Shown piece after piece: positions 2-55,488 of a stretch of 64,000 bases of DNA (positions within the stretch are counted from its first letter, which is position 1; each line of letters starts with the position of its first letter). The notes below the pieces were generated by a model. It did not search any database, was not told where the DNA came from, and saw only the letters and a program-made list of their open reading frames with translations. This stretch comes from a virus: the IMG/VR virus record IMGVR_UViG_3300032257_000004, positions 1 to 64,000 of that record. The stretch is one strand, 5' to 3'. The position numbers and the translations under genes are program-made.

Positions 2-136
2 ATCGAGAACCCTCGCGCCACGGCACTTCGCCACGCCCTCTACGGAAGCGGCGACTGGCACCTCGAAGAACTTTGCCACCTCGAAGACGAACAACTGATT
101 CGTCTGGAACGCATCATGAAACGGAGCTACCCATGA
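2..136 (+). CDS. Hypothetical protein, 5'-truncated by the window edge
   Basis: Frame 2 is open to TGA at 134-136, which overlaps the next ATG (ATGA). Confidence 0.6.
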   Translation: MENPRATALRHALYGSGDWHLEELCHLEDEQLIRLERIMKRSYP

Positions 137-537
137 ACACGTACCTTGTTATTAGCGCCAGCCAACTGGCAGACGGAGACGAATACCCGGACGTACGGAG
201 GTTCGTCTTCCACACAAAGACAGGATTCGCGGAATTCTGCGAAGACTGGGTCAAGGCGCGAGCCTACGAATGGAACTGCGACCCCGACCACGTGTGGGCC
301 GAGTGGGCCTTCTTCGATCTCACTTCGGATACCATAGGCCGAGACGCGAACCGACGAATGGGATACGGCCAATTCATGGACGAAGACGGCGATAACTACG
401 GATCGTTCCGCGTCTACCTGAGTTCTGAGGGCTGGCGCTGGGTGTCCGAACAACCCGATTGCCTGCCGGATGGCGAACCCTCAGAGCCATTCGCAACAAG
501 CGAAGACGCGTGGACGAACGCTAGATGCTATGGCTAA
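133..537 (+). CDS. Hypothetical acidic early protein
   Basis: GGAG SD and ATG at 133; followed by a terminator. Confidence 0.75.
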   Translation: MNTYLVISASQLADGDEYPDVRRFVFHTKTGFAEFCEDWVKARAYEWNCDPDHVWAEWAFFDLTSDTIGRDANRRMGYGQFMDEDGDNYGSFRVYLSSEGWRWVSEQPDCLPDGEPSEPFATSEDAWTNARCYG

Positions 538-571: not shown

Positions 572-607
572 AGGGCCGTGGGTATCCTTCCCCACGGCCC
601 TTTTTTT
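572..607 (+). terminator. Rho-independent terminator
   Basis: AGGGCCGTGGG stem pairs with CCCACGGCCCT, followed by a T-run. Confidence 0.9.
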
Positions 608-673
608 GTTTCTGGAATCAATGTCTATTCCGAAGCGGGTGGTGGGTTGGAATAGACCCCTATTCTAGAACAC

Positions 674-689
674 TGTTTCACGTGAAACA
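674..689. promoter_or_regulatory. parS: parS site (ParB/Spo0J binding palindrome)
   Basis: TGTTTCACGTGAAACA, a perfect 16-bp palindrome matching the canonical bacterial chromosomal parS consensus; intergenic. Confidence 0.85.
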
Positions 690-703
690 AAGCAGAATAG
701 ACA

Positions 704-732
704 TTGCGCGCAGCCCCCTAGCGTGGTAGGAT
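704..732 (+). promoter_or_regulatory. Early sigma70-like promoter with CAGCCCCC box
   Basis: TTGCGC-N17-TAGGAT, TG extended -10, GCAGCCCCC in the spacer. Confidence 0.7.
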
Positions 733-757: not shown

Positions 758-1162
758 ATGATCAGAATTGACTCCAGCGACCTGAGCATTTCGGCTGCAG
801 GTTATTCCACCTAAATCTCGGGCAACGGCGGCGAAGAAGAATTCACCGTGATGGGTTGCATTCGGCAGGGCCATCGCGCCTCATTCTTGGTTCTGCGGGC
901 CACGGTCGACGGAGAATGCAGCTTGATACGCGGGTTCGACCTACCGACCCGAACAGAACACGACCGAGGAAAAGTCATCAGAACCATCGGGCATTACCTG
1001 ATCGAATGGGTTCTGGGCGGGATTCCACCGACCGAGGACGAACACGAGGAAAACTTCCTCGCCATCGAGCGGGTTCTACAGAACATGGTCGAGCACTACA
1101 GCCTCGAACCAACTTCTATGGACTGGCTCGCCTACGAATACCTCAAACAATCCAAGCAGTAA
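758..1162 (+). pseudogene. Hypothetical protein with an in-frame TAA at 812-814 (alternatively a CDS at 848-1162)
   Basis: GGGAG SD and ATG 758 are in frame with ORF 848-1162; a single stop at codon 19 interrupts it. Confidence 0.55.
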
Positions 1163-6680: not shown

Positions 6681-7383
6681 GAAAGCCGGGTTAACAGGCG
6701 GAGGCCGGAAAGCCGGGTTAACAGACGGAGGTTGTGCCCGACTGGGCCTTTAATCTCTCCAAATTTGGAAAGAGTTGGGAAAGGGTTGGGGATCGAGTTG
6801 GGCGAGATTGGGAGTTGGCCAAATTTGGGGGCCCGCGTCCCGTGCGGCTTGTCGGCGTGTCGACACTCTCCGAGTTGGGCTTCGACCCCTCCAACCCGTG
6901 TCTCCACCCACTTTTTCCCGTTTTTTACATACCACCAACCACAACACCCGTTACTTTCTTGCCACATGGGGGCCGCGACCATTACTATATCTCAAACCCA
7001 AAAAAAATTAAAGAAAAAAGGGTTGGGAAAAAAAGACAAGATTGGGCAGTTGGCCAAACTATTGGGCAGATTGGGCAGTTGGTTAAATTTGAAAAGAGCC
7101 GCGTCCCGTGCGGCTGATGCCCTTATCGCCCAACTAATATATAGGTTGGCCAAATTTGGGACTCCAGATATCTCAGAGTCCCAACTCGCCCAACTCAAAG
7201 CCTAACCCTTTCCCAACTTTTTCCAAATTTGGTCCCTCCAAATTTAACCAAATTTGGGCGGAGTTGCGTCGCAATACTCGTGCAACTGACGCTTGCGTCG
7301 CAACCCCCGCGCATTGGGGCCGCGTCTGTGTCCCTTTTGCCACACCCTCTCCAGACCTGCTCTCCAAATTTGGCCAACTTTGG
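6681..7383. repeat. Gene-free repeat/palindrome element (candidate ori, packaging or injection-stop site)
   Basis: Six exact CCAAATTTGG palindromes, imperfect ~55-bp inverted arms, 17-bp and 15-bp direct repeats, a 27-bp-period tandem and central A-tracts. Confidence 0.8.
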
Positions 7384-30771: not shown

Positions 30772-31137
30772 ATGACACCGGCAGAATCGAAACAACAGTT
30801 AGATGTACTTCGGGACGAATTCTTCCTGACTTGGGGAGCGATGTGCGATTGCATGTCCTCCATTGCCAAGTCCAAAGGATTCTACGAGGGGGAGCATAAC
30901 CCCGGCGAGTTGATCGCCCTTATGCACTCGGAACTGTCCGAGTTGTTGGAATACGTCCGCAAACCGGCGAACGATAGCCATGTCACCGATATGGATGGTC
31001 GCGCCGTGGAACTTGCGGATTTGATAATTCGAGCGATGGACTTTTCGTCCAGATTCGATCTTAACGTTGCCGACGCCATCATCGCGAAGGCCAAATACAA
31101 CGCTGACCGTCCATATAAGCACGGCAAAAAATTCTAG
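30772..31137 (+). CDS. MazG-like NTP pyrophosphohydrolase
   Basis: LMHSELSELLE...VELADLIIR...KAKYNADR. Confidence 0.85.
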   Translation: MTPAESKQQLDVLRDEFFLTWGAMCDCMSSIAKSKGFYEGEHNPGELIALMHSELSELLEYVRKPANDSHVTDMDGRAVELADLIIRAMDFSSRFDLNVADAIIAKAKYNADRPYKHGKKF

Positions 31138-34804: not shown

Positions 34805-34990
34805 ATGCACATTGTCAGCGACGGTAACAAGCTGACAGTGCGGGAAGTCTCGGAGCCCATAGTGGAACTGAGAAGCTGGGGGGTTGGAAACGGCCCCCCT
34901 CTTCCTATAATAAATACAATTGTTAGTAAAGATCGTGCCCGATCGATACTGAAAGACGTTCTTCCCGGTGACTACAATAGGATCAAGTAA
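34805..34990 (+). CDS. Hypothetical protein
   Basis: Fills the gap and is coupled to the polymerase. Confidence 0.5.
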   Translation: MHIVSDGNKLTVREVSEPIVELRSWGVGNGPPLPIINTIVSKDRARSILKDVLPGDYNRIK

Positions 34991-36879
34991 TGGATAATGT
35001 CGAGGAATGCCTCTCCAGATTAGAGGAAGCGGATGTCGTCGGGATTGATGTCGAGACCAGCGGTCTTTCTTGGCACGAAAATTTTGTCGTGGGCTGGGTT
35101 TTTTCCTTCGGGCCTAAAGACGAAGACACTTATTACTTGCCGGTGCGGCATCTTGGAGGCGGAAACATTCCGGGTGGGATTACTCCTACCAAGGGGGACC
35201 AATATTATGGCACCGAACATTTCCATCCAATCGAAAAACGAATTAAAAAGATTCTAGAGTCGAAACCTCGGCAGTATTACGCACACAACGCCAAATTCGA
35301 TATGCATATGATCGCGTCGCTAGGCATTTGGCTCAGAGGCGATTTTGAAGACACCGCAGTCAACGCGGCCCTATTGAACGAAAACCAAGGCCGATACGAC
35401 TTAGACACTTGTTGCCGCCGGACGGGGGTTACTCCCAAAGTAGGGGAAATCTACGAGGCGATTTCTAAATACATGTCCCGCAAGCATAGTATCGAAGTAC
35501 CTGCCACTCGCGCCGCGATGGCCTATTTTTGGTATTTGCCGGGAGATGGTGTTGCCGCTGAATACGCTAGAGGCGATGGGATTTCCATGTCCTTGCTTCG
35601 CGACGCTCAGCATAAGGCTTTGGACGAGCGGGAGATGCGGCCAATCTGGGAGTTGGAGCGCCGAGTAACTCGGACACTATTTCGGATGGAACGGAGGGGG
35701 GTCCCCGTTGACGAGAAAGTGTTGGTCGGGGTTGAGGCCCGCGTAGAAAAAATGCTTAAGGACGCCACTCTCCGTCTCCCAAACGCGATAAATGTCCGAT
35801 CGATGCCCCAAGTCAAACAAGCGTTTTTGGAGAAGGGCTACAAGGAAGAGGACTTCCTGCGAACCGAAAAAGGGAACGTCAGCTTTCCGGAAGAATGGCT
35901 CACGGGCGAAGGCGGACAACTCGGTCAAGACATTATTACGGTCCGGAAGTATTCGAATCTTGTTAACACTTTCATCAACGGTGCTATCAAAAAGAATGTC
36001 ATCCGGGGTCGAGTGCACGGCAATTTCAACCAAACCAAGGGAGATGAATACGGGGTTGTAACCGGGCGTTTATCCTGTTCCAAACCCAATTTCCAGCAAA
36101 TCCCTAAGAGGGACAAGGTGCTAGCGCCTCTTCTCCGACAAGTGTTCAGGGCGGACGGTTTCCATTGGTGGTCCTCGGATTATTCGCAGCAGGAGTACCG
36201 CGTATTTGCGGAATATGCGCGTTCAAAGTTCGTTTTGGAGGCATACGCCGAAGACCCCAACACCGATTACCACCAACTGGTTGCCGACATGCTAGGGGTG
36301 GAACGGGACCCAGCGGCTAAGCGCATTAATCTAGGGGTTATCTACAATATGGGGGCCCCATCCCTCGCCCGCAATTTAGGTGTCGTGGTGGATATTGCTC
36401 GCGGCTATCTGCTCCGGATGCGCCGGATGATGCCTGAAGCCACGAAATTCAACAAGACTGCTCAAAAGGTTGCAGAGCGCCGGGGGTATGTCAAAACTAT
36501 TATGGGTCGCCGTAGAAGGTTCCCGAACGGCGAATTTGCCCACAAAGCCGGAAACTCAATCATTCAGGGTTCATCAGCCGACATCACCAAGGTTAAGATG
36601 GCAGAGTGCGACGAATACCTGATGGGAGAGGCCGAAAAGGACAACCTCAACATCTATGCCAGCGAAAGTAAGTCGAATCTTATACTTCAAATTCACGATT
36701 CTCTGGAGTTTTTGTTTGTGGAAGAGGAGCGGGCTAAAATGGAGCGCGTGGTGCAAATTATGGAATCGTTCGGTGAGAGCGATTTAATTCAGTTAAGCGT
36801 TCCAATGTCGGTCGATACCGATTTCGGAATTTCTTGGGGACACGCAACGTTTAAAAGCTATGAGGAGTGGGTGGAATGA
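34990..36879 (+). CDS. polA: Family A DNA polymerase (3'-5' exonuclease + polymerase)
   Basis: DVET, HNAKFD, TGRLSCSKPNFQQIP, DYSQQE, KRINLGVIY, IHDS. Confidence 0.95.
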   Translation: MDNVEECLSRLEEADVVGIDVETSGLSWHENFVVGWVFSFGPKDEDTYYLPVRHLGGGNIPGGITPTKGDQYYGTEHFHPIEKRIKKILESKPRQYYAHNAKFDMHMIASLGIWLRGDFEDTAVNAALLNENQGRYDLDTCCRRTGVTPKVGEIYEAISKYMSRKHSIEVPATRAAMAYFWYLPGDGVAAEYARGDGISMSLLRDAQHKALDEREMRPIWELERRVTRTLFRMERRGVPVDEKVLVGVEARVEKMLKDATLRLPNAINVRSMPQVKQAFLEKGYKEEDFLRTEKGNVSFPEEWLTGEGGQLGQDIITVRKYSNLVNTFINGAIKKNVIRGRVHGNFNQTKGDEYGVVTGRLSCSKPNFQQIPKRDKVLAPLLRQVFRADGFHWWSSDYSQQEYRVFAEYARSKFVLEAYAEDPNTDYHQLVADMLGVERDPAAKRINLGVIYNMGAPSLARNLGVVVDIARGYLLRMRRMMPEATKFNKTAQKVAERRGYVKTIMGRRRRFPNGEFAHKAGNSIIQGSSADITKVKMAECDEYLMGEAEKDNLNIYASESKSNLILQIHDSLEFLFVEEERAKMERVVQIMESFGESDLIQLSVPMSVDTDFGISWGHATFKSYEEWVE

Positions 36880-41274: not shown

Positions 41275-41303
41275 ATCTTATCACATTTGAGGTCTTTAGT
41301 CTA
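41275..41303 (-). promoter_or_regulatory. Late-arm sigma70-like promoter without box
   Basis: TAGACT-N17-TAAGAT with extended TG on the minus strand. Confidence 0.5.
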
Positions 41304-44300
41304 GACCCACTGCCTTTTTAATCATTGCGATTTGCGCCTTCAGTTGGTCGACTTCGGATTTCAGGTCTTGTATTTCGTCGTCCTTCTCCTGAATAGCCTT
41401 CACCATCGGGGCTATTAAGCCCTTGTAGTTCATCGTCATGTAGTCGTCGGGTTCGGTCGGATTTTGGACCAACCAAGGCCCGACTTTCTCGATTTCCTGC
41501 GCGACGAATCCCTCTTCGTAGGATTGGGTCAGGAAGTTGAAGTATTTCCGAGGATTTAGACTCCGGATGAAGTCCATTCCATTGGTGATGTCTTCAATGT
41601 TGCCCTTGACGCGACGGTCCGAAGTCTCATTGACCGTACCGGTGACGGTAATACCGCTGGTGGTTGTCTGGAACTTCTTCAGGTTATTGAAGTAGAGGAG
41701 TACATCACTGTTGCCACTGTTCTCGCGCATAAGGATGCAAAGATCGGTTTCGTTACCGATGGTGCATTGTGAGTTGTTTTGCGCCCAAAGCCAGTCACTT
41801 TGCCCGCTTTCCCCCTCAAGGATGATGGAACCACCTGTACTACCAACGGGCAAGGCTGTGATGCCAGATGTGGACAGCAACATAACGTCTGTGCTGTTAC
41901 ATGTAGCTGTAATCTGATGGGCCGTGGCAAGGTTGAAACCCGTAGCATTATTGACTGCTGCCCAAAGGTAGTCAGATATTACGTATTTACCAGTAGGTAT
42001 GATTAAGCCACTGGTGTTGATTGTTGCTCGCACAGTAGCTGTTTGGTTGTCAGCGGTAGTCGTATCAACAGAGCAGAACTCAAAACCACCAGCCAAATTA
42101 CCTCTAAGCACTGACCCTTTGAGGCCGAAGGTGCGGTAGCTACTGGCAGTCGATGTCCCGTGGCCCGCGCTGAACCCGATAAAAGGCCTGCCCGTGCCGC
42201 TCTCATATCCGAGGACTGAGCCATATCCTGCGGTGTTGCCGTGACCCCATTCGAAGGCGTCTCCTGCGCTCGCTCCTCGTGCTGTCAGGAGCGCGCCATA
42301 CTGGCCCACCGTGGTGCCGATACGAGCCCCTCCATCGACAGTCAAATCCGTCGAGAACGTGCTGGTCGTCGAGTTGATCGTGAGGCGGGTGGCACCGTTT
42401 TGGCGAAGGTAAATTGTCGCCGCCCCGGTGCCGCCCATATACAGCGCACTAGAGGCATTAGATTGCATATACGCGGAGCCTGATTGGTAGGCGATATGCT
42501 GGATATAGATCGAGCCACCATAAATGATAGCTTGACCAGCCCCTCCTGTCGCGGCGTTCTGGACAAGAACCTGAGTGGTGCCAGCGTAATCCCGGCGAAC
42601 CGTCAAAGCGGATGGTTGCCACATCCCAATTTCAACATCATCGACACGGTGGACTTGTATGTCAGGTGCAACATCAAAGCGGTCAGTGTGATCGCCGTTA
42701 TTTGCGAGGATGCGAACGCCATTTTGCCCGGTCAGGTAGGTCGTTGTGTCAGCAAGCGTCGAATCGAAGACGAGGCGATAAACGCCTCCGGTTGTCATCA
42801 AGCCGGTGTAGGACGCACCATATTCACCGACCTGCATCGAGCGATTTGCGCCACCAATAACCGCACCATTGCTGGCAGAGGTGATATTCGCCACAGCGTT
42901 ATCACCAGAGAATATCTGGACAGGACCAGCCGTGAGTGCCTGCCAAGCAATTTTCGTCGTGGTGGCGTTGACGAGGGAGAGCAGGTTCGAGCCAGAGCCT
43001 TGTGCAGCCAGCGTCCAATCATCTTGAGACGTGAAGCCTTGAATTGAGAGCTTGCCACCGAGCGAGCCCGTTCGCATGAGTTTGAGCGCATCGGCTACGG
43101 TTTGGGCAACGGTTGTAGACTGGTATTTCAAGTAGGCGCGGTTCGCATCGACAGTGAAGTTGATGTAGCCACCTGTCACCAGATCAATAATGTCCGCGCC
43201 GCCCCAGCGAAGATAGGTGTTACTGTCGGAAGACCAGTTGGGGTAAATTGCAGCATTGGCGGCATCTAATACAATGCCATCTGTGTCGTCGCCGCGCCTA
43301 TAATAGAACAGTCCGTTGGGGGCTTTGAAGTAAGTTTGACCTCCCGAAATATAGTAGGTTCTGTCAGCACCGTTCGTGTCGGTGTGCCAAATGGTGTGGT
43401 CGATGGATGTGGAGCCGTTGATTTTTACCCGCGCGAAGGTGTTAAAGATTGCTTCACCAGCACCACCATTCCCGCCGTTAAATTCAATACCCCCCGGATT
43501 GGTCCCGGTACTGATGCCGCGTAGGACTACAGTTGAACTTGTTTCCGTCCATCCACTACCGCCAGAAAGAACAAGATAACCGTCATTGACTGTCCGTTTG
43601 ATATAAGGATCGGCGTTGGACATGCGGATATGACCTTCAAACAAAAAGTCTCCGCCACCCGTGAACGTGAAGTATTTATTGGAGCCAGATGCGCCGGTTC
43701 TGACAACAAAATCATTTGGCGATCCTTCGTAAAGATAGATGTCCGTGTCGGCACCTATGCTAAGGCCCGCAAATCGAGAATTACTATTTGTATTGATTAA
43801 GGCACCCGTCATCGTTCCGCCAGCGAGGGGCAGATAATTACCGGGAGTGAAGTTGCCTTCGTGGAAAATCTTGTAGCTGGTGGTCCCCATAGACCAACCA
43901 CCGACGACGAAATCATTCCTAGACCCGTCAAGTCCGAAATACGCTGCGTAGTTGCCTGCTACGTGGAAGCACATCAACGCGTCTGTACCAGAGGTGGGCT
44001 GATAGATTTGTAACTGTGTGGCTATTTGACCCGTTGCGGCCTCTATAGTCTGGCCTGTTGTGGTGTAAAACAGACTTATACCAGAAGTAGCGTTCAACGC
44101 GCCCGTCAGCGTTCCGCCTGCGAGAGGCAGATAATTACCGGGGGTGAAGTTGCCAGCATGCCAAACTAGGTTTGTGGCGTTGGCGTAGATTTCGCTCTTC
44201 GCGCGGAGAACGCCCGAACTGCCACTCAAAGACATAAGGGTAGTGTCCCCACCGTTTTCCCATATAAAGCCCTGACTGTTGTTGTTAGCAACACGGAAGC

Positions 44301-47300
44301 GAATATGGTGGTAGGTCTGCCCATCAAGCGACGTTGGGGCGTAGCCACCGTTGAGTGCCTTTCCGCTGCCTGATTGGGCCATGTAAATGCCCCAATTAGT
44401 GTCGGCACTTGTCCACATAAACAGGCCGCGTGTGCTGCCTCCATCTGTACCGTTCTGAACAACAATTTTAGCACCTGCGCTCGCAGTCAGCACTCCCGTC
44501 ATCGTTCCGCCAGTGAGGGGCAAGTAATTACCGGGAGTGAAGTTGCCACTGTGCCACAGCGTGTTCCATGTTGGAGTTACGGTCGCACCGGCTGTTGTCG
44601 CTCCGCTGAAAGTGGCAACTTGCGCGTTCCCATATCCAAAGCGAAGCGCACCGTATCCTACCGAAGCGTGTGTAAGACTGGTACGGTAGGATACCGCAGC
44701 CCCGTCCCAATTAGCATAGAGATTACCTCCGAATACGCCGTAACCCCCGGCATCGGACGACATATCAGCCCAAATCATCCCCAGCATTCGGGAATTGAGG
44801 TGGTTGGCCACATTGATCTGGCCGTTGCAGGTTACATTACTATCAAAGGTCCATGCGCCGTAACCAACCACACCGGCAGAGTTCGCCGCGATACGGACAG
44901 AGTTGCCGCCATAAAGATAAGTGGTCTGAATATCGTCATCGAACATCAAGTAAGATGCGCCGGAACCGAGTAAGTTTGTGAAAGCCAACTGGTTAGCTGG
45001 GTCTGGCTGGGCTACAATTGTCCAATCAGTGTTCGTTCCGTGACCCTCAAAGCGGATTTTACCACCGACCGAGGCTGTTTCCATAAGCTGTAAACGATCA
45101 CTGTACGTTTGGGCAATTACGTTCCCTTGGTATTGAAGGTAGACACGGTTCGCATCTATGGAGAGATTGACGTTGCCGCCCGCAATCCATCGTTGAGCGT
45201 CTGCAACATGTCGTTCCCAATATGTGTTGCTGTCCGCACCACTAGGATAAATGCGGAAATTGGCAGGATCGAGCCTGATATGGTCGGCAGTTCCATCATG
45301 GGCGTAGAACTCATGCCCCGCGCCAGAGGCCGCACCAGCGTACAGGTTGTCTCCGTTTAGAACAAACTGTAACCGCCCATCGGTATCATCGTCAGTGTGC
45401 CAAGTGCTTGTCCCCATGCCGACAATGCGGTTGCCGTTAAGATCAAAGTCAGACCGGAGGGTGACAATGGCATCAGCCGTGCCGAGGTATAAGAGCCCCG
45501 CCGAATGATCACGCCAGATGATATTGGTTACGCCATCTGTGCTATCCCAAACACAGAAGTCCTGATCGTTCACCTGTATGTAGACACCGCCGCCATCGCC
45601 CGACAGACCGTTGGAGGTCCCTCCGTCCACGACAAGTCGTCCGGTCAGCGTCCCGCCAGTGAGCGGAAGGAATGGCCCGCCTGTCGTATAGCCTTGGCTG
45701 GACACCCACGTTTGGGTCGCTACAGAAGCGCCACCAATTTGCAGGTTAGTCGTGGCGTTCCACGTACCTGTCAACGTACCACCGGCAGAAGTCGTCTCGG
45801 CGCGAATACCACCGTCATAATAGATCGCGGTTGATCCGTTTTTGTTAGCTGCCAGATAGTTCTTGGCCGTGATAATGTCTTGAAGGACAAACTGATCGGC
45901 ACCGATTGGTGAGACCAAGCCCCATGTTCGTGTACCCGACTGGTTCTCAAGAATGATGCGAGCCCCATACGTACCAATGCTATTAACCGTGGTGCCATCA
46001 ATCGCAGTAATCAGCCGATCAACGCCTGCATAACGCGCACGAACCACGTTGGCGTTGATAATCATGTTTTCTACAGTGCCAGCGTAGAAGTTTATTGTGT
46101 CGTCTGCTGACGAATAGATATAGGTGTCGTTGTCGGCATCGAGGTCGATACGCTGACCATCCATATCCAGAACACCAGACATGATCCCACCCGCGAGGGG
46201 AAGGTAGGAGTGAGTGTGTCCGGTGTCAGACTTACCATCAAGCGCCGTTTGTAGGCCGGTCACATTAGCGATGGTGTGCGTATGGGAGGATGCAGCTTTG
46301 CCGTCCAGCGCGGTCTGTAGCCCTGTTACGTCAGAGATCGCGTGGGCGTGACCTGCGAGGGAGACAGCAGTACCCCCAACAGTCAGGGCTGTAGTAGCGT
46401 TCCACGTTCCAGTCAGCGTACCACCGGCAGAAGTCGTGGATAGCTTAATAGCTGTGTCATAGAAAAGATCGACGCCGCCGCCCTGATAGAAATTCGCCAT
46501 CGTTTCGATAGCGGAGCCGTCATAGCTTTGAATAGCGATCTGACCGTTAGCCGCGTGATTTAGATAACCTACATAGGCACCGCTTGGGCCTTGCAACTGT
46601 ATCTGTGCGCCCGCTCCACTAATTCTGGCGGCGTAGATAGACGAATTTACAAACTGCGTGAGTGATGCACCGAACTTGATGCGATTAGCGCCGCTGTACT
46701 GAAGCGAACTGGTCGAAGTCAGGTTGACTGTCGGTGCGACCAGCGTCCCTGTCATAGTATCGCCAGCAAGAGCAACCTTACCGTCCAATGCGGTTTGGAG
46801 CCCCGTTACATTTGCAATGGTGTGAGTGTGGCCCGCAACAGAAACAGCCGTACCACCCACGGTAAGGGAGGACGTGACGTTCCACGCGCCTGTGAGTGTC
46901 CCGCCTGCATCTGTCCATGTTAGAGCAGTGCCGCCGTCCGCAATCAATCGGCCTTGGGTATCGCTGTCACGAACAGCGAAGATGCCGGGTCCGAGTTGCA
47001 GATTATCTTCGTACAGTTGCGAAGATGTGCCGCGAACCACAAACGAAGTCAGAGCCTCCAATCCACCGCTATGCGTAGCTGCTACATCCACGTTGTTATA
47101 GTAAAGATTAACCGAACTACTTCTGTTCGCAATTATGTGGTAGTCGAATTCAAAATCTACATCGCCCGCGTCGTAACTTTGGACGGCGAACTGACCATTG
47201 TTAGAGTGACGTAGGTACATGATGTGGTCGTTGTCACTAGGGGCTTGAAATTGAATGTCCCCGCCCTGAATACCTGACTTACCAACGTAGAGGGGCACGT

Positions 47301-50300
47301 TTACAACGGCTACGTTTGCCACCTGTACACGTAGTTTGTCTTGCCCGTCAGCTTGGAAATCCATTCTACCGGCACTATGGAAGTCGATACCGGTGTCAGT
47401 ATCGTCCAGAGCGAACAGACCATTCTTCGTATAGACCTCAGTTCCGTAAGCCGCGAACAACGCTGTGCCTTCGACGGAAATGCGGTAGTCATCATTACCG
47501 TTCCAGAACGGACCCGTTTGCGTAGTCCCCGTAGCCAGACGCATAATAGGGACAGTTTCCGACCCACCGCCTGCGAGAATGAACCCGCCTGCGTTGTGTA
47601 CTGTGCCTCCACCCATGTTGAGACCGTGGCCGGAAGTCAGAACAATATCGGTGTCACCGATGTTGAACGCCTCGTGACCCGATTCATCGTACATAATCAG
47701 AGTGCCAGCATCATTTATAATCAGTCGGTTGTTACCGCTCGTGTCTTTGAACTCAAGCTGGCCTTGACGGAACATATTGAACCGAATGTTGCCCTCGTGG
47801 TCCCGCATCGACAGCATCCCGTCGTTGCCAAGCTGGCCGATAAAGGCGCTGTAGGAACCATCAGTCTTGGGTTTGAATTCGACTTCACCACCAACACTGG
47901 TATTCTTTCCACTGATCGTGTGACGCCAGTAGGCAATGTCGTTTGCGTTACCGCTAGTGTCTGCGACGTTGGTGTCAATGTTATTGGTGAAACGGTTGCC
48001 GTGACCGACATAGCTTCCAGAACCACCTGCAATAAGGATTGCGTTGTTGACCGTATTATCGCCGTTAGCATCGCCAATGAATTGATTGTGATCGACAATC
48101 GTATGATCGGCATCTACATAAAGATGTGTGACATTGCCAGTTTTGCCTGAAGGGATAGACTCGGTGACGAAGGTGTTACCAATGATGATACCTTCTTCAG
48201 TGTAGGCTGGGTCACCGTCATTGATGACGTTCAGACCAATGAAGGCTTGACCATTAAAGCTGGCTTCGACCGTTGCATCATTCCAGTAAGAGAAGCTGTT
48301 GCTATCTACGTGGAACTGAGAATAACCATCGATCTGCATTGCCATAGATGCAGCGTTAATATGGTTATGGTGAACAACCAGTGAAGGCTGCGTAGTACCG
48401 GTCTTGGCCGTGGCGGTGATACCGATACGAGCGCGCACAATATTGGAATGACTGATATACTGACCTTCAGGGAAACCGAAGATGTTGACACCAATATTGC
48501 AATCACTGGCCGTCAAATGGTCGATGTGGCCTTCAAGGCTTTGACCGTGTGAATTATCATCGGCGTCGATCTGAGTCGTGATGTCGATGGCCGTACCATC
48601 GTAGTAAACAGGTGAGCCGTGAGTTGCATCAGCGTTCGAACCAATGTACCGGATAGATTTCAAGTCGTAGTAAGCTACGTTCTTGAGCATGATACCTTTT
48701 TTGAAGTAGTTGCCGACACCAGTACCGTAAATATTAATGTGTTCAGCGTAGACTCTGGACTCGTTAACGAACGCAATATTACGGTCGAACCAAATGGCTT
48801 CGCCCGTGTCGTCGTTATTATAGATTTCATCCCCAGCTACAGGGCTATAAACACCTACGCTGCGAGGGTCGTAGTCTTCATTCGTTACGAAGAAGCGGCT
48901 AGTTGCTCCGTCATAGCTGGTGATCTGTGCAGTCCAAGTTCTATTAGCCCACGTCCCGTCAGTCGAAGTGAAGATCACATCATCTGCGCTGAAGTTACCG
49001 GTTTCATTGGTGACAGAGATACCAGTTTGGAGATCGGGCCAAGCGACCTTGATAGCCTCGTCCCAAACACCACTGGTAGTGATGGAGAAATCTTTGAATG
49101 CGGCACCAGCGTTGTAACCGTTTACGTTATAAGGCTCCAAACAGAAGGCGGCGTCGGCTACACTGCCTTCGAACAGGAAGGTTGTGGAGTTCTGGCCCGA
49201 ACCATAGAGCATGATACTTTCGGGCAAGAAGACTACATCGTCAAACCGGTAGGTGCCGGGTGGAGCAAAGATAACCGCTTTAGCGCCGCTAGACGTGTAG
49301 AGTTCGTCCGCCACATCCCTTATTCGGGCCAGCATGTCCTCGTAGTTGCCTTGGTTGACTGTAGCCGAATTCTCGGGCCGAATATCAAAGTCCCACAGGC
49401 TATAGACGCGAGAGATTTCGGATACAGATTTGAAGAACATCCGGCCCGGAGACGACACGTCCTCAACCATCGGAACGTTTCTGCGGGAACCGGAATAGTT
49501 CAGCGGCGTATCAGTAAGGTGGGTAAACGTGTTCTCTTCACCTGCCGAACCGGTGGTGTCCCCACTATCTTCCAAGATGAACGAACCGCTACCTGTAGCG
49601 AGCAAGACGATTTCTCGACCTAGTTTGTCGGAGTCGGCAGCTTCAATGTCGCCTTCCGCATCGTAGACTTTCACTCTGAAATAGTGAGTTCCAGCGGTAT
49701 AAGTAGCCTCGGTATCAGTTTGGTCGTAAACGTACTGGCTGAATGTATCGGAGTCTGGCACCGAAGTGTCGTTGTGATCAGACTTAGAGACGTTTTTAAT
49801 TTGGTAGTAATCCGTCGCAGGCTCACCGAAGAGTGAAGCACCGGGGAAAGTATTAACATCGAACTGGTTGGCCGTCGCCCCAGCAGTCGCAACCTTGGTG
49901 TAATCACGATTGGCAATCTTGGTAGCGTTTGCTGTCCACCACGCGTCGTTCTGACCATCAGGGTCGCTGGTGGTGTGCCAGATTTCGATAGTAATTGTGG
50001 CCGGGGGAGTATTGGATTGAATCAGTACATCATATACGGCGTGGCGCGCGGCAACGCGAACGTCGTCAATGTCGTCATCCAAAGTAATCGTATAGAAGTC
50101 GAGGTTGTTGTTCAGCTTGCCAGTGATCTGCTTGGTGCTATAGTTCTGTTTCGAGAAAATCTGGCTGCGCAGATATTCGGGAATCTCGCCAGAACGAAGA
50201 ATAATGTTTCCGACGTCATCCATAAGGGTGAACGAACGCATAGTAACGTGGCCGTTTTTGTCGACCGAGAACGGAGCTCCAGCGCCGAGGAAGCTACCTG

Positions 50301-53300
50301 CCCAAATGCGCCAGTCGTACGAAGAGTTGCCTGACAGGCCAACGAACGAATTCGCGTCAGAGCCAATCTTGATTTCACTTTCAGCGAAGATATGCGTACC
50401 AGTGATGGAATCTGCAACAATGCCCTGACCGTCAATACGGGTTCCGCCTGCGGGAGTCCAGTCGGACAAGACCGTTTGGTTGGCAGTGGCCTTGGAGACC
50501 ATCAGCCTGCGGAATTTGGCAACTTCGGTATTCTCAAGAGATAGACCATTTAATAGAATTCGCATCCGGACAGCGGTGGCCGGGACAGTAAACACTCCTC
50601 CCAGCCGATCCATGTTAGCCAGAGTGCCATCCGTGCTAGCAGTGGTGTTCGAATACGTGAAGTCCTCGCCTGACAGATATCCGCCCGCGTATGCGCTGTA
50701 GAATTGTACAACTAATTGCGCGTTTCCGGCGTTGGTAGCCTGCGCATAAACGGAGGCTTCATACTTTTCGCCTGCCGTAACGTCGTAGTCGTGTCGGTTG
50801 GCTCCGGAAGCGTCGCCCGGTCCTGCATTGTCCGTTTGGTCAGCGGCGGTGGAAGTCAGGACCAAAGCCTGTTCACTGCCGAACGCAGTACCCTCGGCTG
50901 CGGATTCGAACGTCTTGGTTACGTTCGCATTGGTGCCAATTTTGATGCTGGAAAAGTCTGCGGAGAAATCCGAGTTTTGAACCAAATTACGGCTAAAGCC
51001 CACGTTCATAGCGGCGGCGGAGACTGTACCGGCTACCAAAAGGTTGCCATCTATTTCAACATTAGTGGCGTCCATCCGAATCTTGGTGCCAGTAACTTGG
51101 AATACTGGAAGATTGGCAGCGGCGTTGGAATTCCAAATGGAGAAGTCGTCGGCTTGGAAACCGATTTCCGACATCAGGGCACCGTCGCCCCCGGCGCGCG
51201 AAGTCAACCAAGCGCGAGCAACGGTATTCGCATTTCCGGTCCCGGCCTGAGTCTGGAGCATAATGGTGGCGGTGGATGTTCCGCCATCGAACAGAGCCTC
51301 TTGGAAGATATCTGCCCGAGCCTTGGTCTCAGAATAGGACAAATCGCCGTACGCCACAAACGCGGATTTGTGGATTCGCCACTTGTCGTTGGTAGTTTGG
51401 TCGGAAGAATCAGCTGGGGCGATCCACCATACAGTGGGATCAGCAGTCCCCCAAGCCACGGCTCCGGCATCGGTCGACCCCTCCAGATCGAACACGAACG
51501 TGTACATTTTGCCGGTTTCGTAATAGGCGTTTTCGTTTTTATTGACGGCATGCAACCATGCACCACCGTTGTTGGTGCCGGAGCGCCAGTTGAATTCCGG
51601 GGTGACGGGAATATCCGCTTGTCCACTCACGAATTCCATCACGACTACTGCGTACCGAACCCTCTCCCAGTCGACAGCGGCTTGTTGATCGGCGGAAAGG
51701 GCCCAACCAGCGTAGATTTGTCCAGTGTCGGCAGTGGCGGTGATCTCGATCCCATTATTGGCCAGAGCAGTAGTTACTGACGCCTTGGACGTGGCGTCTC
51801 CAGAACCGGTTCCGTCGTTCCACTGCCAGACAAGATCGGGGTGAACGTCTGTCAGGTTCGGCAAGACAGCGCCTGCTTCAACAGTATCTAGGCGATACGC
51901 GAGTGCAGTATCGCCATTTTGGCGACCCAAAATCTCTTGCGCGATTCGGGCGTATACAGAACCTCCGGCATCGGCGGTGTCACCAGCATCGCCCACCAGA
52001 ATTTCGGTGTTGGAAACTCTTTGCTCAAGCGGAGCGTTTACTCCGACCAGCGAGCGCATCGAATCGATTCCGCCAGAGACGCTTTCCTTTGTCCCAACGG
52101 CCAGCAGCACGTCTGTATTGGCCGGAGTAAACGCAACCCCCGCCGTGTTGGTGTTGTCGTGAGCGTACCATTGGTCATTAACGTCGTCGTAGGTTACTAC
52201 ACCCACGTATGCATTGCCGGTGGCCGGGTCAGTCAGACCCCCGCCAAATCTCGAACTCCAATCGGAATTGGAGTACATGATATAGAAGCGCTCGCCCCGT
52301 GGAACAGTCGAACCCTCCCATGGGGTGAGGATGTTGAAGGGAGTGTGGAAAATCTGGCCATTAGTACCAGTTTCGTCGATTCGGCCAAGAGTCGGGTGGT
52401 TGAACCAACCATCGCCGCCATCGTCTACACCATTCGATACTCGAATCTCTCCGTCGTCCGCCCCAGTAGTGAGTTCGTTCTTGTGGAAATAAGCGTCGCC
52501 ATTTACACCGCCAGAGATGCCGGGGGGAATGACGGATTTACCGATTTCCATCACCCGGTTGATTTCGTCTTGGACCGTACCTGCAAGTTTGGTCAGAGTG
52601 ATTGAACCATCGGGAATGTCGTCGATCGGTTCCAGAGTGGTAATGCTGCCCTCGTCCGAAGCCACCAGCCCATCAGTTCCGAATTCGTCGTACACCGCGT
52701 ACTTGTAGTAATAGGTCGTGTCGGCGCTGGCGCTAAACGAGGGTTTGCCGGGGCCCTTAAAAACGACATTTCCATCGGTGGTAGAAACGCTGGGGGAAGT
52801 GTCCGCCCAAACAATCATTCCCCGGAAGTCGGGGTCGTTAGGCTCCAGATAATCGAAGTAAATTTCGCGATACGACGCCGTAATGGTTACGTCTGGAAGG
52901 GCGGGTTTAGTATTCGTTACAGTCAGCGATTCGGTTCGACCAACTTCGTTGTACCGATTTACATACGACACTTCCACTTCGAAAGATCGAAGGGGTGCGC
53001 CATTGTTGTCGTCGAAATTGTTTTCGTACGTATAAGTATAGAAGTTGTCAGTAACGAATTCTCGACGGAGCAGATTTCCGTTTCCATCCCGGACGTCCAC
53101 TTGGTAGTGTTGAAACAGAGGGTCCGTGGAGGACGAATCCCCACCGAAGCGTTCGGCACCGGGGCTCTGCGCCATTCCGGAGGCTCTGCGCCACGTGAAC
53201 ACCGCGTCCTTGCCCTCGAATTCCGTGTTGTTGCCCTGTTCGAACAACTCCAGACCGCTGACCGATGGGGCGGGAATAGGGGAGGTAGATTCGACCGTGA

Positions 53301-55488
53301 TCGTGCCCTCGACCGGAGTGGAGGACAAAACTCCAAACACGTTCCGGGCGTACACCCGAACGGTATAGGTGTCCGCGTATGGGAAATCGATACGAGCGCT
53401 ATTGGAGACCGTAGTTCCCAACTCTTTCCACTCGGGATCGCCAGTTCGGCTGTAAGTGATGAAATACCGGTCAATGTACCGATCGTCGGACTGCGACCAG
53501 CCAATGTCGATATAGTCGTCCACCGCTTGGGGGCTAATTACTTCGATCTGGCGCGAAAGCGAAATAGTGGACGGAGGGTCCATCTTGTTCATCGCGGGGA
53601 GTTTGGTGTAACTCTCGACCGGGAAGTCGATGCCCTCTTCTACCGACGCGAATTTGTCGTTGTTGTATTCGAGAGCAGTGACTTCGTAGCACTTGACTTC
53701 GTTGACTTCAACTTCGCGGATGGACAGAACCCGGTACTGCGGTAGAGTAACGTCCGTGCCAAGAATAGCGAAAGCCTCACCAACAAGCGGAGTTCTACTA
53801 GGAGAGCCCAACATCACTACGGTGTCAGTCGAAGTAGTTCCCGGATTGGTCAGATTCACCAGTTCTGGAGCGCCCGATGCGTCGAGTACAGAGATTTGGT
53901 AAGTTTCGCCAGCGTCGAAATCGTAAGCTTTGTCCAGCGTCAGAGTGGAACCCGAAACGCCTGCAATCCGGCCAGCGTTGCGAACACCTAGTCTTTCAGG
54001 GTCCGACAAACGGATGACCGAACCGGGACGGACGTTCAGGTGGTCAGCGTGGCAGACGTACGAGACCGTTTCGGTTTCGTTGAGTTCGGAATAAATGATC
54101 CAGCGAGCGGCCCGGTGAGCCATTGCTCTGGAGGTACAACCGTGGAGAACAACGTCTTTGCGACGATAACCCAGCGTGGCGATGCCGACACGGTCCTCTA
54201 CTACTTCGACTGCGGGCCGACCAAAATTGTTGGGGTCGGTCCAAGTGACGAACACAGCAGTGTGGCGCGCTTTTTTAGCCGATTTCTGGTATCGGAACAT
54301 CCCGCCGATAACGCGGGTCTGGTTGACTTCGATCTCCGGAGATTTCGGGCTATCCTGAATCAGAGTGACCGAACCCGAACCCCAGTACATCATACCACGG
54401 AAGGTGGAGGCCAGAACGTTCAGAACTTCCCAAGCTTCCCTCTGCTCCTGAATTACGCCTTTAAACGTAAACCGGGGTTCAGTTCCGCCTTGTCCATCGT
54501 CCACGTTTCCGTCGCAATAGACGCCGATATTGTACACGGCCCATTTGTCGACATTCGATATACCCAGTTCTTCGCCCAAGCCGTATCGATCGTGAGTCGC
54601 TAGATCGAACCAAATCCACGCGGGGTTGGAAGTGATGGCCTCGATGAAAGTACCATCCCATATGCCGGTATAAACCCGAGTCGCAGCGTCGTAGTTGCTT
54701 GGGACCTTAACTTTCCGGCCCTTCAGGCGATACGCGCGCTTTGGTGGCTGCGAACCAAACTGCTGCGCGTCAATTTCGATACCAATGAGGGCGGAATCCG
54801 GGTATGAAAACTTGGACTCGTTGATGGCAGTGTACGAAGACCATATCGTGCCATTCTGGATGTCGATGGTCTCCGAATCCGGAGTAATACGTTGGACTTC
54901 GAGCGTGTAAGTGTCCGTCCCCGGAAGTTCCAAATAGTAGGAGCGTTCGTAGGGGGATGTGGTTTTGCCGGATATCGTGACGGTCTGTTCGGTGATGACG
55001 GAGCCACCGGGATTGGTTTTCCAAATGAATTTAAGGGAAACCGTGGTGCCCGTGATAACTTGCTCTTCCTGCTTAACGTGCTGGAGACCGGTAACTTTAA
55101 TTGCGAGACGCAGGGCGTCCATTGTCGATCCATCGATCGATCGAGTGACAGGAATCGCGGCTTTGACTTCAGCCCCAACCGCGATGGTAGCTTCGGCCTC
55201 AGAGAATCCCGGAATAGAGGTCTGATCGGGCAGACCCTCTCTAGTTACCCACCTGAAGCCTTGGAAGTTGTACGAATCGTCGGAATTCTGGAGCGGAACT
55301 TCATTCAAGTAAATAGACTTGGCACCATCGACCAGACCGCCGATTTCGCCTTCCGACACAAGGTCGATAATCTTTGCTTTGGACGTTGACCGAAGAGTGT
55401 TCGGGGCCTCTCGGACCCCACCCTCTCCGGTGCTGCCTTTGCCTTTGCGGCCAGTAAGTAAGTCGAGGTCTGGATATTGATCTCTCAC
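41296..55488 (-). CDS. Giant host-specificity protein: lambda J-like tip fused to a CBM-like domain, beta-helix depolymerase, fibre repeats and an S74 chaperone (4730 aa)
   Basis: N-terminal LVSEGEIGGL / SNPAW motifs of gpJ; FAPPGTYRF pectate-lyase-like start; HTH fibre repeats; C-terminal TSDRRVKGNI. Confidence 0.9.
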   Translation of the reverse strand: MRDQYPDLDLLTGRKGKGSTGEGGVREAPNTLRSTSKAKIIDLVSEGEIGGLVDGAKSIYLNEVPLQNSDDSYNFQGFRWVTREGLPDQTSIPGFSEAEATIAVGAEVKAAIPVTRSIDGSTMDALRLAIKVTGLQHVKQEEQVITGTTVSLKFIWKTNPGGSVITEQTVTISGKTTSPYERSYYLELPGTDTYTLEVQRITPDSETIDIQNGTIWSSYTAINESKFSYPDSALIGIEIDAQQFGSQPPKRAYRLKGRKVKVPSNYDAATRVYTGIWDGTFIEAITSNPAWIWFDLATHDRYGLGEELGISNVDKWAVYNIGVYCDGNVDDGQGGTEPRFTFKGVIQEQREAWEVLNVLASTFRGMMYWGSGSVTLIQDSPKSPEIEVNQTRVIGGMFRYQKSAKKARHTAVFVTWTDPNNFGRPAVEVVEDRVGIATLGYRRKDVVLHGCTSRAMAHRAARWIIYSELNETETVSYVCHADHLNVRPGSVIRLSDPERLGVRNAGRIAGVSGSTLTLDKAYDFDAGETYQISVLDASGAPELVNLTNPGTTSTDTVVMLGSPSRTPLVGEAFAILGTDVTLPQYRVLSIREVEVNEVKCYEVTALEYNNDKFASVEEGIDFPVESYTKLPAMNKMDPPSTISLSRQIEVISPQAVDDYIDIGWSQSDDRYIDRYFITYSRTGDPEWKELGTTVSNSARIDFPYADTYTVRVYARNVFGVLSSTPVEGTITVESTSPIPAPSVSGLELFEQGNNTEFEGKDAVFTWRRASGMAQSPGAERFGGDSSSTDPLFQHYQVDVRDGNGNLLRREFVTDNFYTYTYENNFDDNNGAPLRSFEVEVSYVNRYNEVGRTESLTVTNTKPALPDVTITASYREIYFDYLEPNDPDFRGMIVWADTSPSVSTTDGNVVFKGPGKPSFSASADTTYYYKYAVYDEFGTDGLVASDEGSITTLEPIDDIPDGSITLTKLAGTVQDEINRVMEIGKSVIPPGISGGVNGDAYFHKNELTTGADDGEIRVSNGVDDGGDGWFNHPTLGRIDETGTNGQIFHTPFNILTPWEGSTVPRGERFYIMYSNSDWSSRFGGGLTDPATGNAYVGVVTYDDVNDQWYAHDNTNTAGVAFTPANTDVLLAVGTKESVSGGIDSMRSLVGVNAPLEQRVSNTEILVGDAGDTADAGGSVYARIAQEILGRQNGDTALAYRLDTVEAGAVLPNLTDVHPDLVWQWNDGTGSGDATSKASVTTALANNGIEITATADTGQIYAGWALSADQQAAVDWERVRYAVVVMEFVSGQADIPVTPEFNWRSGTNNGGAWLHAVNKNENAYYETGKMYTFVFDLEGSTDAGAVAWGTADPTVWWIAPADSSDQTTNDKWRIHKSAFVAYGDLSYSETKARADIFQEALFDGGTSTATIMLQTQAGTGNANTVARAWLTSRAGGDGALMSEIGFQADDFSIWNSNAAANLPVFQVTGTKIRMDATNVEIDGNLLVAGTVSAAAMNVGFSRNLVQNSDFSADFSSIKIGTNANVTKTFESAAEGTAFGSEQALVLTSTAADQTDNAGPGDASGANRHDYDVTAGEKYEASVYAQATNAGNAQLVVQFYSAYAGGYLSGEDFTYSNTTASTDGTLANMDRLGGVFTVPATAVRMRILLNGLSLENTEVAKFRRLMVSKATANQTVLSDWTPAGGTRIDGQGIVADSITGTHIFAESEIKIGSDANSFVGLSGNSSYDWRIWAGSFLGAGAPFSVDKNGHVTMRSFTLMDDVGNIILRSGEIPEYLRSQIFSKQNYSTKQITGKLNNNLDFYTITLDDDIDDVRVAARHAVYDVLIQSNTPPATITIEIWHTTSDPDGQNDAWWTANATKIANRDYTKVATAGATANQFDVNTFPGASLFGEPATDYYQIKNVSKSDHNDTSVPDSDTFSQYVYDQTDTEATYTAGTHYFRVKVYDAEGDIEAADSDKLGREIVLLATGSGSFILEDSGDTTGSAGEENTFTHLTDTPLNYSGSRRNVPMVEDVSSPGRMFFKSVSEISRVYSLWDFDIRPENSATVNQGNYEDMLARIRDVADELYTSSGAKAVIFAPPGTYRFDDVVFLPESIMLYGSGQNSTTFLFEGSVADAAFCLEPYNVNGYNAGAAFKDFSITTSGVWDEAIKVAWPDLQTGISVTNETGNFSADDVIFTSTDGTWANRTWTAQITSYDGATSRFFVTNEDYDPRSVGVYSPVAGDEIYNNDDTGEAIWFDRNIAFVNESRVYAEHINIYGTGVGNYFKKGIMLKNVAYYDLKSIRYIGSNADATHGSPVYYDGTAIDITTQIDADDNSHGQSLEGHIDHLTASDCNIGVNIFGFPEGQYISHSNIVRARIGITATAKTGTTQPSLVVHHNHINAASMAMQIDGYSQFHVDSNSFSYWNDATVEASFNGQAFIGLNVINDGDPAYTEEGIIIGNTFVTESIPSGKTGNVTHLYVDADHTIVDHNQFIGDANGDNTVNNAILIAGGSGSYVGHGNRFTNNIDTNVADTSGNANDIAYWRHTISGKNTSVGGEVEFKPKTDGSYSAFIGQLGNDGMLSMRDHEGNIRFNMFRQGQLEFKDTSGNNRLIINDAGTLIMYDESGHEAFNIGDTDIVLTSGHGLNMGGGTVHNAGGFILAGGGSETVPIMRLATGTTQTGPFWNGNDDYRISVEGTALFAAYGTEVYTKNGLFALDDTDTGIDFHSAGRMDFQADGQDKLRVQVANVAVVNVPLYVGKSGIQGGDIQFQAPSDNDHIMYLRHSNNGQFAVQSYDAGDVDFEFDYHIIANRSSSVNLYYNNVDVAATHSGGLEALTSFVVRGTSSQLYEDNLQLGPGIFAVRDSDTQGRLIADGGTALTWTDAGGTLTGAWNVTSSLTVGGTAVSVAGHTHTIANVTGLQTALDGKVALAGDTMTGTLVAPTVNLTSTSSLQYSGANRIKFGASLTQFVNSSIYAARISGAGAQIQLQGPSGAYVGYLNHAANGQIAIQSYDGSAIETMANFYQGGGVDLFYDTAIKLSTTSAGGTLTGTWNATTALTVGGTAVSLAGHAHAISDVTGLQTALDGKAASSHTHTIANVTGLQTALDGKSDTGHTHSYLPLAGGIMSGVLDMDGQRIDLDADNDTYIYSSADDTINFYAGTVENMIINANVVRARYAGVDRLITAIDGTTVNSIGTYGARIILENQSGTRTWGLVSPIGADQFVLQDIITAKNYLAANKNGSTAIYYDGGIRAETTSAGGTLTGTWNATTNLQIGGASVATQTWVSSQGYTTGGPFLPLTGGTLTGRLVVDGGTSNGLSGDGGGVYIQVNDQDFCVWDSTDGVTNIIWRDHSAGLLYLGTADAIVTLRSDFDLNGNRIVGMGTSTWHTDDDTDGRLQFVLNGDNLYAGAASGAGHEFYAHDGTADHIRLDPANFRIYPSGADSNTYWERHVADAQRWIAGGNVNLSIDANRVYLQYQGNVIAQTYSDRLQLMETASVGGKIRFEGHGTNTDWTIVAQPDPANQLAFTNLLGSGASYLMFDDDIQTTYLYGGNSVRIAANSAGVVGYGAWTFDSNVTCNGQINVANHLNSRMLGMIWADMSSDAGGYGVFGGNLYANWDGAAVSYRTSLTHASVGYGALRFGYGNAQVATFSGATTAGATVTPTWNTLWHSGNFTPGNYLPLTGGTMTGVLTASAGAKIVVQNGTDGGSTRGLFMWTSADTNWGIYMAQSGSGKALNGGYAPTSLDGQTYHHIRFRVANNNSQGFIWENGGDTTLMSLSGSSGVLRAKSEIYANATNLVWHAGNFTPGNYLPLAGGTLTGALNATSGISLFYTTTGQTIEAATGQIATQLQIYQPTSGTDALMCFHVAGNYAAYFGLDGSRNDFVVGGWSMGTTSYKIFHEGNFTPGNYLPLAGGTMTGALINTNSNSRFAGLSIGADTDIYLYEGSPNDFVVRTGASGSNKYFTFTGGGDFLFEGHIRMSNADPYIKRTVNDGYLVLSGGSGWTETSSTVVLRGISTGTNPGGIEFNGGNGGAGEAIFNTFARVKINGSTSIDHTIWHTDTNGADRTYYISGGQTYFKAPNGLFYYRRGDDTDGIVLDAANAAIYPNWSSDSNTYLRWGGADIIDLVTGGYINFTVDANRAYLKYQSTTVAQTVADALKLMRTGSLGGKLSIQGFTSQDDWTLAAQGSGSNLLSLVNATTTKIAWQALTAGPVQIFSGDNAVANITSASNGAVIGGANRSMQVGEYGASYTGLMTTGGVYRLVFDSTLADTTTYLTGQNGVRILANNGDHTDRFDVAPDIQVHRVDDVEIGMWQPSALTVRRDYAGTTQVLVQNAATGGAGQAIIYGGSIYIQHIAYQSGSAYMQSNASSALYMGGTGAATIYLRQNGATRLTINSTTSTFSTDLTVDGGARIGTTVGQYGALLTARGASAGDAFEWGHGNTAGYGSVLGYESGTGRPFIGFSAGHGTSTASSYRTFGLKGSVLRGNLAGGFEFCSVDTTTADNQTATVRATINTSGLIIPTGKYVISDYLWAAVNNATGFNLATAHQITATCNSTDVMLLSTSGITALPVGSTGGSIILEGESGQSDWLWAQNNSQCTIGNETDLCILMRENSGNSDVLLYFNNLKKFQTTTSGITVTGTVNETSDRRVKGNIEDITNGMDFIRSLNPRKYFNFLTQSYEEGFVAQEIEKVGPWLVQNPTEPDDYMTMNYKGLIAPMVKAIQEKDDEIQDLKSEVDQLKAQIAMIKKAVGLD

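Follow-up and report, generated by a model that had tools for sequence, protein, structure and literature searches.

Plasmid-prophages of the P1 and N15 type supply both ParA and ParB themselves and use parS sequences of their own. The consensus site of the chromosomal ParB/Spo0J proteins is the 16-bp palindrome TGTTTCACGTGAAACA (PMC7022226, PMC7383237). It is exactly the parS of Hyphomonas neptunium (PMC7022226) and the parS co-crystallized with Caulobacter crescentus ParB (PMC7383237); Caulobacter sites as a group read t/cGTTt/cCACGTGAAAca (PMC7022226), and the B. subtilis spo0J parS is TGTTCCACGTGAAACA (PMC4333373). Host-type sites are also found on the virulent Bacillus phages phi29 and Nf, with five parS sites in phi29 and Spo0J-dependent entrapment in spores (PMC2731898). 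The integrative island SGI1, by the account given in PMC10954446, hijacks the ParABS system of its IncC helper plasmid; it is a mobile element whose centromere sites serve a partition protein that the plasmid encodes. The literature that we searched gave no general description of orphan host parS sites in phages, which are documented there only for phi29 and Nf.

Here we describe such a site on an uncultured phage, represented by a 91,316-bp IMG/VR virus genome with 127-bp terminal repeats that is estimated to be complete; the window is the whole 64,000-nucleotide stretch of DNA analysed, bases 1-64000 of this record. The phage lies far from cultured phages: the best match to its DNA polymerase among GenBank phages is 32% identical, and neither megablast nor blastn detected a DNA match to the phage in this set. 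The tail-gene region of the window contains a single 4,730-aa ORF (41296-55488, minus strand).

The features of the locus are collected in Table 1. The sequence read and a pattern scan confirmed the claim of an earlier note on this DNA that an intact TGTTTCACGTGAAACA stands between genes, and the proposed identity as a chromosomal ParB/Spo0J loading site agrees with the published consensus, tGTTTCACGTGAAACa, at every position (PMC7022226, PMC7383237). No second match is found at up to three mismatches in the 64-kb window, or when up to four are allowed across all 91,316 bp of the genome. The site has a strong terminator on its upstream side and a promoter of a phage-specific family downstream. 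Its 3' end is, as the note had also stated, 14 bp before the -35 box that starts at 704, and 7 bp separate it from palindrome B.

Table 1. The parS locus and the genome features used to interpret it (window positions unless marked genome)
Feature	Position	Strand	Details
Upstream early gene	133-537	+	ORF call; 134 aa, no known family; 40% identical to the syntenic L161 gene
Intrinsic terminator of upstream gene	572-611	+	11-bp stem (572-601, 9 G-C pairs), then TTTTTTTGTTT; T-run to 611
Palindrome A, GGAAT-N8-ATTCC	614-631	.	GGAAT-N8-ATTCC kept in L161, spacer differs
Palindrome B, GGAATAG-N4-CTATTCT	649-666	.	15/18 bases same in L161
parS, TGTTTCACGTGAAACA	674-689	.	perfect consensus, 16/16, intergenic
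Third/fourth GAATAG copy	694-706	+	motif census; right arm common to both inverted repeats
Early promoter	704-732	+	-35 TTGCGC 704-709, 17-bp spacer, TG 724-725, -10 TAGGAT 727-732; CAGCCCCC box
Downstream early gene	758-1162	+	RBS AAGGGAG 745-751, ATG 758, in-frame TAA 812-814
Permuted tmRNA	genome 80296-80793 (L162 16290-16745)		Rfam alpha_tmRNA, 99 bits; predicted tag VNDNDIVEQEQLLAA
Candidate 2-aminoadenine pathway	genome ~75.1-76.84 kb; window 30772-31137; window 34990-36879		PurZ-like, adjacent HD-domain, MazG-like and DpoZ-like genes

Each of the described systems shares part of this arrangement. The precedent of phi29, which the earlier note had invoked, is borne out by its five sites and their Spo0J-dependent use in spore entrapment (PMC2731898). 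Like phi29 and Nf, the present phage carries a host chromosomal parS without a ParB gene, and it would likewise use the partition protein of its host. However, it has one site where phi29 has five, and phi29 is a 19-kb protein-primed podovirus, whereas this genome is 91 kb long, encodes a tape-measure protein and PurZ/DpoZ-like genes, and probably contains 2-aminoadenine (Z). Furthermore, entrapment in spores is a Firmicute use, and for a probable alphaproteobacterial, non-sporulating host that purpose probably does not apply. The centromere-like site on a phage genome recalls P1 and N15, but this phage encodes no parA or parB and its site is the chromosomal consensus. With the chromosomal sites of alphaproteobacteria it shares the 16-mer itself, but here a phage carries it, outside the context of oriC and parAB, as a single, probably Z-substituted copy without a partner gene in cis; the clustering around an origin and parAB that is typical of chromosomal parS is absent from the whole genome. 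SGI1, as presented in PMC10954446, is an integrative island that exploits a plasmid system, whereas the target of this phage would be chromosomal ParB.

About 6 kb downstream of parS, six exact CCAAATTTGG palindromes fall within 615 bp (window 6759-7373), against 0.11 expected. This cluster is a candidate iteron-type replication origin or a second operator array; if it is an origin, parS would be origin-proximal.

The earlier note saw neither parA nor parB in the window, and this holds for the entire genome: six-frame searches with the ParB_N, HTH_ParB, AAA_31 and CbiA families gave no match at E up to 1. In control searches of 14 genomes, ParB_N was matched in 11, and HTH_ParB, AAA_31, CbiA and Phage_integrase were matched in all 14. 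The phage has no ParA or ParB of its own. A phage ParB elsewhere in the genome that accounts for the site, named in the note as a possible refutation, does not appear among ParB family matches, and an explanation by phage-encoded ParB or ParA is rejected because these searches were empty. Phage_integrase, the family of tyrosine integrases, was likewise without a match (E up to 1) in all six frames of the whole genome.

From the base composition, about 2e-5 copies of TGTTTCACGTGAAACA are expected in the genome. As a control we used the reversed palindrome ACAAAGTGCACTTTGT, which has a composition identical to that of parS. The control is present in 2 IMG/VR contigs and parS in at least 119, an enrichment of at least 60-fold. 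Because the control palindrome occurs in only 2 contigs, the 16/16 match is not a coincidence to be expected, and a chance origin of the site is very unlikely. A combined pattern of parS and GAATAG was found in 43 IMG/VR contigs, with flanks unrelated to the phage locus.

The earlier note had proposed a check of positional conservation in related phages, and the one relative found provides it. This is L161, a 1,893-bp JGI contig that encodes P0003, a protein 64-68% identical to the product of the downstream gene. It has the same order as the phage: a homologue of the 133-537 gene, a terminator with an equivalent hairpin and T-run, two GGAAT-N8-ATTC palindromes, a parS variant, a 12-bp insertion, the promoter and the orthologous gene. 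The variant, TGTTTCACGTGGAACA (1302-1317), occupies the same place and differs at a single base (15/16). Read on the opposite strand it is exactly the B. subtilis spo0J parS TGTTCCACGTGAAACA (PMC4333373), and it falls within the range of C. crescentus parS sites. Indeed, the changed position, 5/12, is one that varies among natural Caulobacter and B. subtilis sites. With an intergenic background identity of 69% between phage and L161, the probability of 15 or more matches in 16 is about 0.02, and when a 16-column window is slid along the alignment, 15/16 is attained nowhere except at parS and at the RBS/start codon. Judged from this one relative, parS appears to have been kept under selection, with change only at a tolerated position.

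Other searches returned no further copy of the locus. No relatives emerged from IMG/VR when it was scanned with the primase, an aligned set for the downstream protein or an unbiased pattern of promoter, RBS and ATG, and this last pattern had no match in bacterial genomes either. The DNA polymerase identified one 21-kb fragment, L121, at 80% identity, which does not cover the parS region. A 99%-identical protein, P0002, is encoded on a 6.6-kb contig. For the protein of the 133-537 gene, a word search returned only the protein itself, and no relatives were found in IMG/VR or in a set of 5.8 billion protein clusters. In L161, the 12-bp insertion beside parS creates a second half-site-like sequence, CGTGAACA (1318-1331), and the contig end (1-100) consists of about 3.6 tandem copies of the 28-bp unit TCTGGCTATGTCTATCCGTATAGGTGTT.

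The reading that we favour, and consider probable though well short of certain, is that this parS is a predicted loading site for host ParB on a phage without partition proteins. The earlier note had likewise proposed recruitment of host ParB, to a site that it described as enclosed by nested repeats and abutting the first early promoter. The consensus match, the lack of phage ParA and ParB, the phi29 precedent and the conservation in L161 uphold the recruitment, whereas the nested enclosure and the first-promoter status do not stand, as set out below. Recruitment of SMC, protection of the genome and sensing of the host state, which the note also suggested, would be speculative consequences. 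Points against loading by host ParB are that the phage has one site only, where chromosomes usually carry several, that conservation is seen in one relative, that the host is indicated by a single clue, and that the putative Z substitution would alter the site.

We infer both ParB binding and the type of host from the sequence. The host is probably an alphaproteobacterium; this is based on the alpha-type tmRNA, the only host clue. The 3' end of the tmRNA, scanned against bacterial genomes, had matches in every phylum and thus gave no host information. A Ro60-type protein with TROVE and Ro60 vWA domains is encoded at genome positions 81132-82895 (L162 17132-18895) on the minus strand.

The genome also contains candidate genes for a 2-aminoadenine pathway. 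A PurA-like gene with the motif GSTGKG has NCBIfam PurZ as its best family (237 bits, below the cut-off of 300), and its best phage matches are annotated as PurZ; the adjoining gene has an HD-domain match (75396-75608). The phage furthermore encodes a MazG-like pyrophosphatase, and the best family for its DNA polymerase is DpoZ (350 bits, below the cut-off of 500). Because of these PurZ-like, DpoZ-like, HD-domain and MazG-like genes, the phage DNA is probably Z-substituted, with 2-aminoadenine in place of A, and in that case 10 of the 32 bases of duplex parS would be 2-aminoadenine. What is new here is an orphan parS on a phage with PurZ/DpoZ-like genes, so that the parS itself probably contains this base. 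A dNMP kinase gene (genome 76827-77417) and ThyX (77414-78268) are also present. Z leaves the major groove of DNA unaltered, and Z:T pairs are triple-bonded and stiffer; the stiffer pairs might change ParB release or the dynamics of the clamp. It is mainly through a helix in the major groove that ParB recognizes parS (PMC7383237). Of 147 restriction enzymes tested, according to the results given in PMC12944874, about half fail on DNA containing dZ. Should ParB not load on Z-parS, something else must be the ligand of the conserved site.

In the mechanism that we propose, host ParB dimers would nucleate on the phage parS, close as CTP clamps and slide onto neighbouring phage DNA, and the phage genome would thereby be plugged into the host ParABS machinery. 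The outcome that we favour would be the positioning or partition of unintegrated phage genomes; as the phage replicates, titration of ParB could stall segregation and division of the host. We favour these outcomes because in alphaproteobacteria ParB is essential, is bound up with the cell pole and, through its partners, places the division site. It is an essential protein of both Caulobacter and Hyphomonas, where its depletion blocks division (PMC7022226). That Z-parS serves as a sink, with each replicated phage genome titrating ParB if host ParB loads on it, we consider quite improbable.

Loading of ParB might also have a modest effect on the adjacent promoter, which we regard as secondary. 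If this effect were instead the main role of the site, bound ParB would damp or time the 704-732 promoter, or block read-through from upstream, in a way coupled to host ParB/CTP. We think this unlikely, although the position of parS close to the -35 box and insulated by a terminator would suit it. An alignment with two paralogous promoter modules would suit it as well, since parS and palindrome B together form an insert unique to the 704 promoter. There is also a precedent in S. pneumoniae, where ParB-parS is described in PMC4488948 as modulating a nearby operon. However, parS is upstream of the -35 box and not over the core promoter, and its spacing to the -35 box changes from 14 bp in the phage to 26 bp in L161, which argues against an operator role with fixed geometry. 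Chromosomal ParB usually has only weak effects on transcription. Furthermore, the gene that the promoter would serve has an in-frame stop in the phage. In its L161 orthologue P0003 (128 aa) this TAA is replaced by TCA (Ser), so the L161 gene reads through; the interrupted phage gene splits into an 18-aa peptide and a 103-aa protein that restarts at ATG 851. The stop codon could reflect a genuine nonsense mutation, mark a site of read-through or be an error of sequencing.

The promoter itself belongs to a family of about 20 in this phage, with the pattern TTGCGC(G)CAGCCCCC...TGGTAyGGT, and shares 24 of its 29 bases with the L161 promoter. A generic sigma-70 scan does not call it, because the -35 box matches at only 3 of 6 positions. 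The family is characterized by a near-palindromic GGGGGTTGCGCGCAGCCCCC over the -35 box and spacer and by an extended -10, TGGTAyGGT, and its members on the plus strand include those at 704, 1808, 2826, 4030, 10712 and 27694 and at genome positions 89016-90900. The 704 promoter and its L161 orthologue both have no left GGGGG arm of the family element. The earlier note took the 704 promoter for the first early promoter; it is the first in the window only, and five promoters of the same family lie just upstream of it, on the other side of the arbitrary contig start, at 89.03, 89.69, 90.17, 90.49 and 90.88 kb. A chimeric assembly with host DNA is rejected, as parS lies within this phage-specific promoter module and is common to L161.

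The motifs around parS raise another alternative, namely that the 16-mer is the operator of a phage regulator other than ParB, combined with the two GGAAT-N8-ATTC palindromes in a single control region, and that its identity with parS is coincidental. The genome contains five GAAT-N8-ATTC palindromes where about 1.4 are expected, and all are in the early region (615, 650, 88842, 88927 and 89630, the last three being L163 5842, 5927 and 6630). Most of them closely follow the T-run of a terminator and precede a family promoter; the palindrome A module, for instance, is also found after terminators at 88.8-89.6 kb. In L161, palindrome B is the perfect 16-bp palindrome GAATAGATATCTATTC, which is also the best form of the whole palindrome family. 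These palindromes, which are conserved in L161, are probably the operator of an early regulator. A type II hammerhead ribozyme (41.6 bits, above the Rfam gathering threshold) is also located in the early region, at genome positions 87400-87468 (L163 4400-4468).

A phage regulator could thus be the real ligand in this composite region, which is dense in regulatory repeats and in which a conserved palindrome lies 7 bp away from parS; the majority of early phage proteins belong to no known family, so a DNA-binding protein may be among them. We nevertheless consider this quite unlikely. The match to the ParB consensus is exact, where the control palindrome turns up in just 2 IMG/VR contigs, and the only change in L161 is at a position that ParB tolerates. 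In addition, parS occurs once, whereas the operator-like motif occurs five times in the early region.

The repeats themselves do not form a conserved enclosure of parS. The arms reported in the earlier note are present, with CTATTCT at 660-666 and AGAATAG at 694-700 for one repeat and CAATGTCTATTC at 619-630 and GAATAGACATTG at 695-706 for the other. However, the two repeats share the right arm 694-706 and are alternatives, not nested structures. Both arise because GAATAG is present in four copies in 623-702, and the region holds three of the eight genome copies of GAATAGAC. The counterpart of the shared arm in the paralogous promoters is the GGAATCGG element; in L161 the arm is poorly kept, and the outer 12-bp repeat is not conserved. 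The conserved neighbours of parS are the two GGAAT-N8-ATTC palindromes, not the outer inverted repeat. A conserved cruciform is rejected, as the DNA fold is only modestly better than that of shuffled sequences (z = -2.5) and L161 does not keep the outer stem.

Finally, that parS is a non-functional relic, either a scrap of a host origin region or a chance palindrome that has not decayed, would fit a single site compared with a single relative across a fairly conserved intergenic region (69%), but is very improbable given that the 16-mer sits in a phage-specific promoter module without host-like flanks, that 15 of its 16 bases were kept while the neighbouring gene drifted to 40% protein identity, and that parS is at least 60-fold enriched over the control in IMG/VR.

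We return to parS as a predicted loading site for host ParB, a reading that may extend beyond this phage. Seven of ten further large IMG/VR records that carry a perfect parS lack a ParB_N match (L027, L154, L019, L020, L153, L056 and L076). They carry one to three perfect sites each, some having two or three, and five of the seven are at least 92% complete, several of them 92-100%. Four of the parS records were compared with this phage (L027, L154, L153 and L139), and they share no terminase with it. Because of the enrichment in IMG/VR and the several complete parS phages without ParB, an orphan host-type parS looks like a strategy that recurs across phage lineages.

A 16-bp site that captures a centromere-binding protein of the host would be a very cheap viral route into the biology of the host chromosome. 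The strategy of phi29 would thereby be extended to a large tailed phage whose host is probably an alphaproteobacterium, where ParB is essential, and whose genome probably contains Z in place of A. The phage thus raises directly the question of whether ParB recognizes and loads on a parS substituted with 2-aminoadenine, and if the site does act as a ParB sink, a DNA sequence of 16 bp would be a protein-free inhibitor of host division and segregation.
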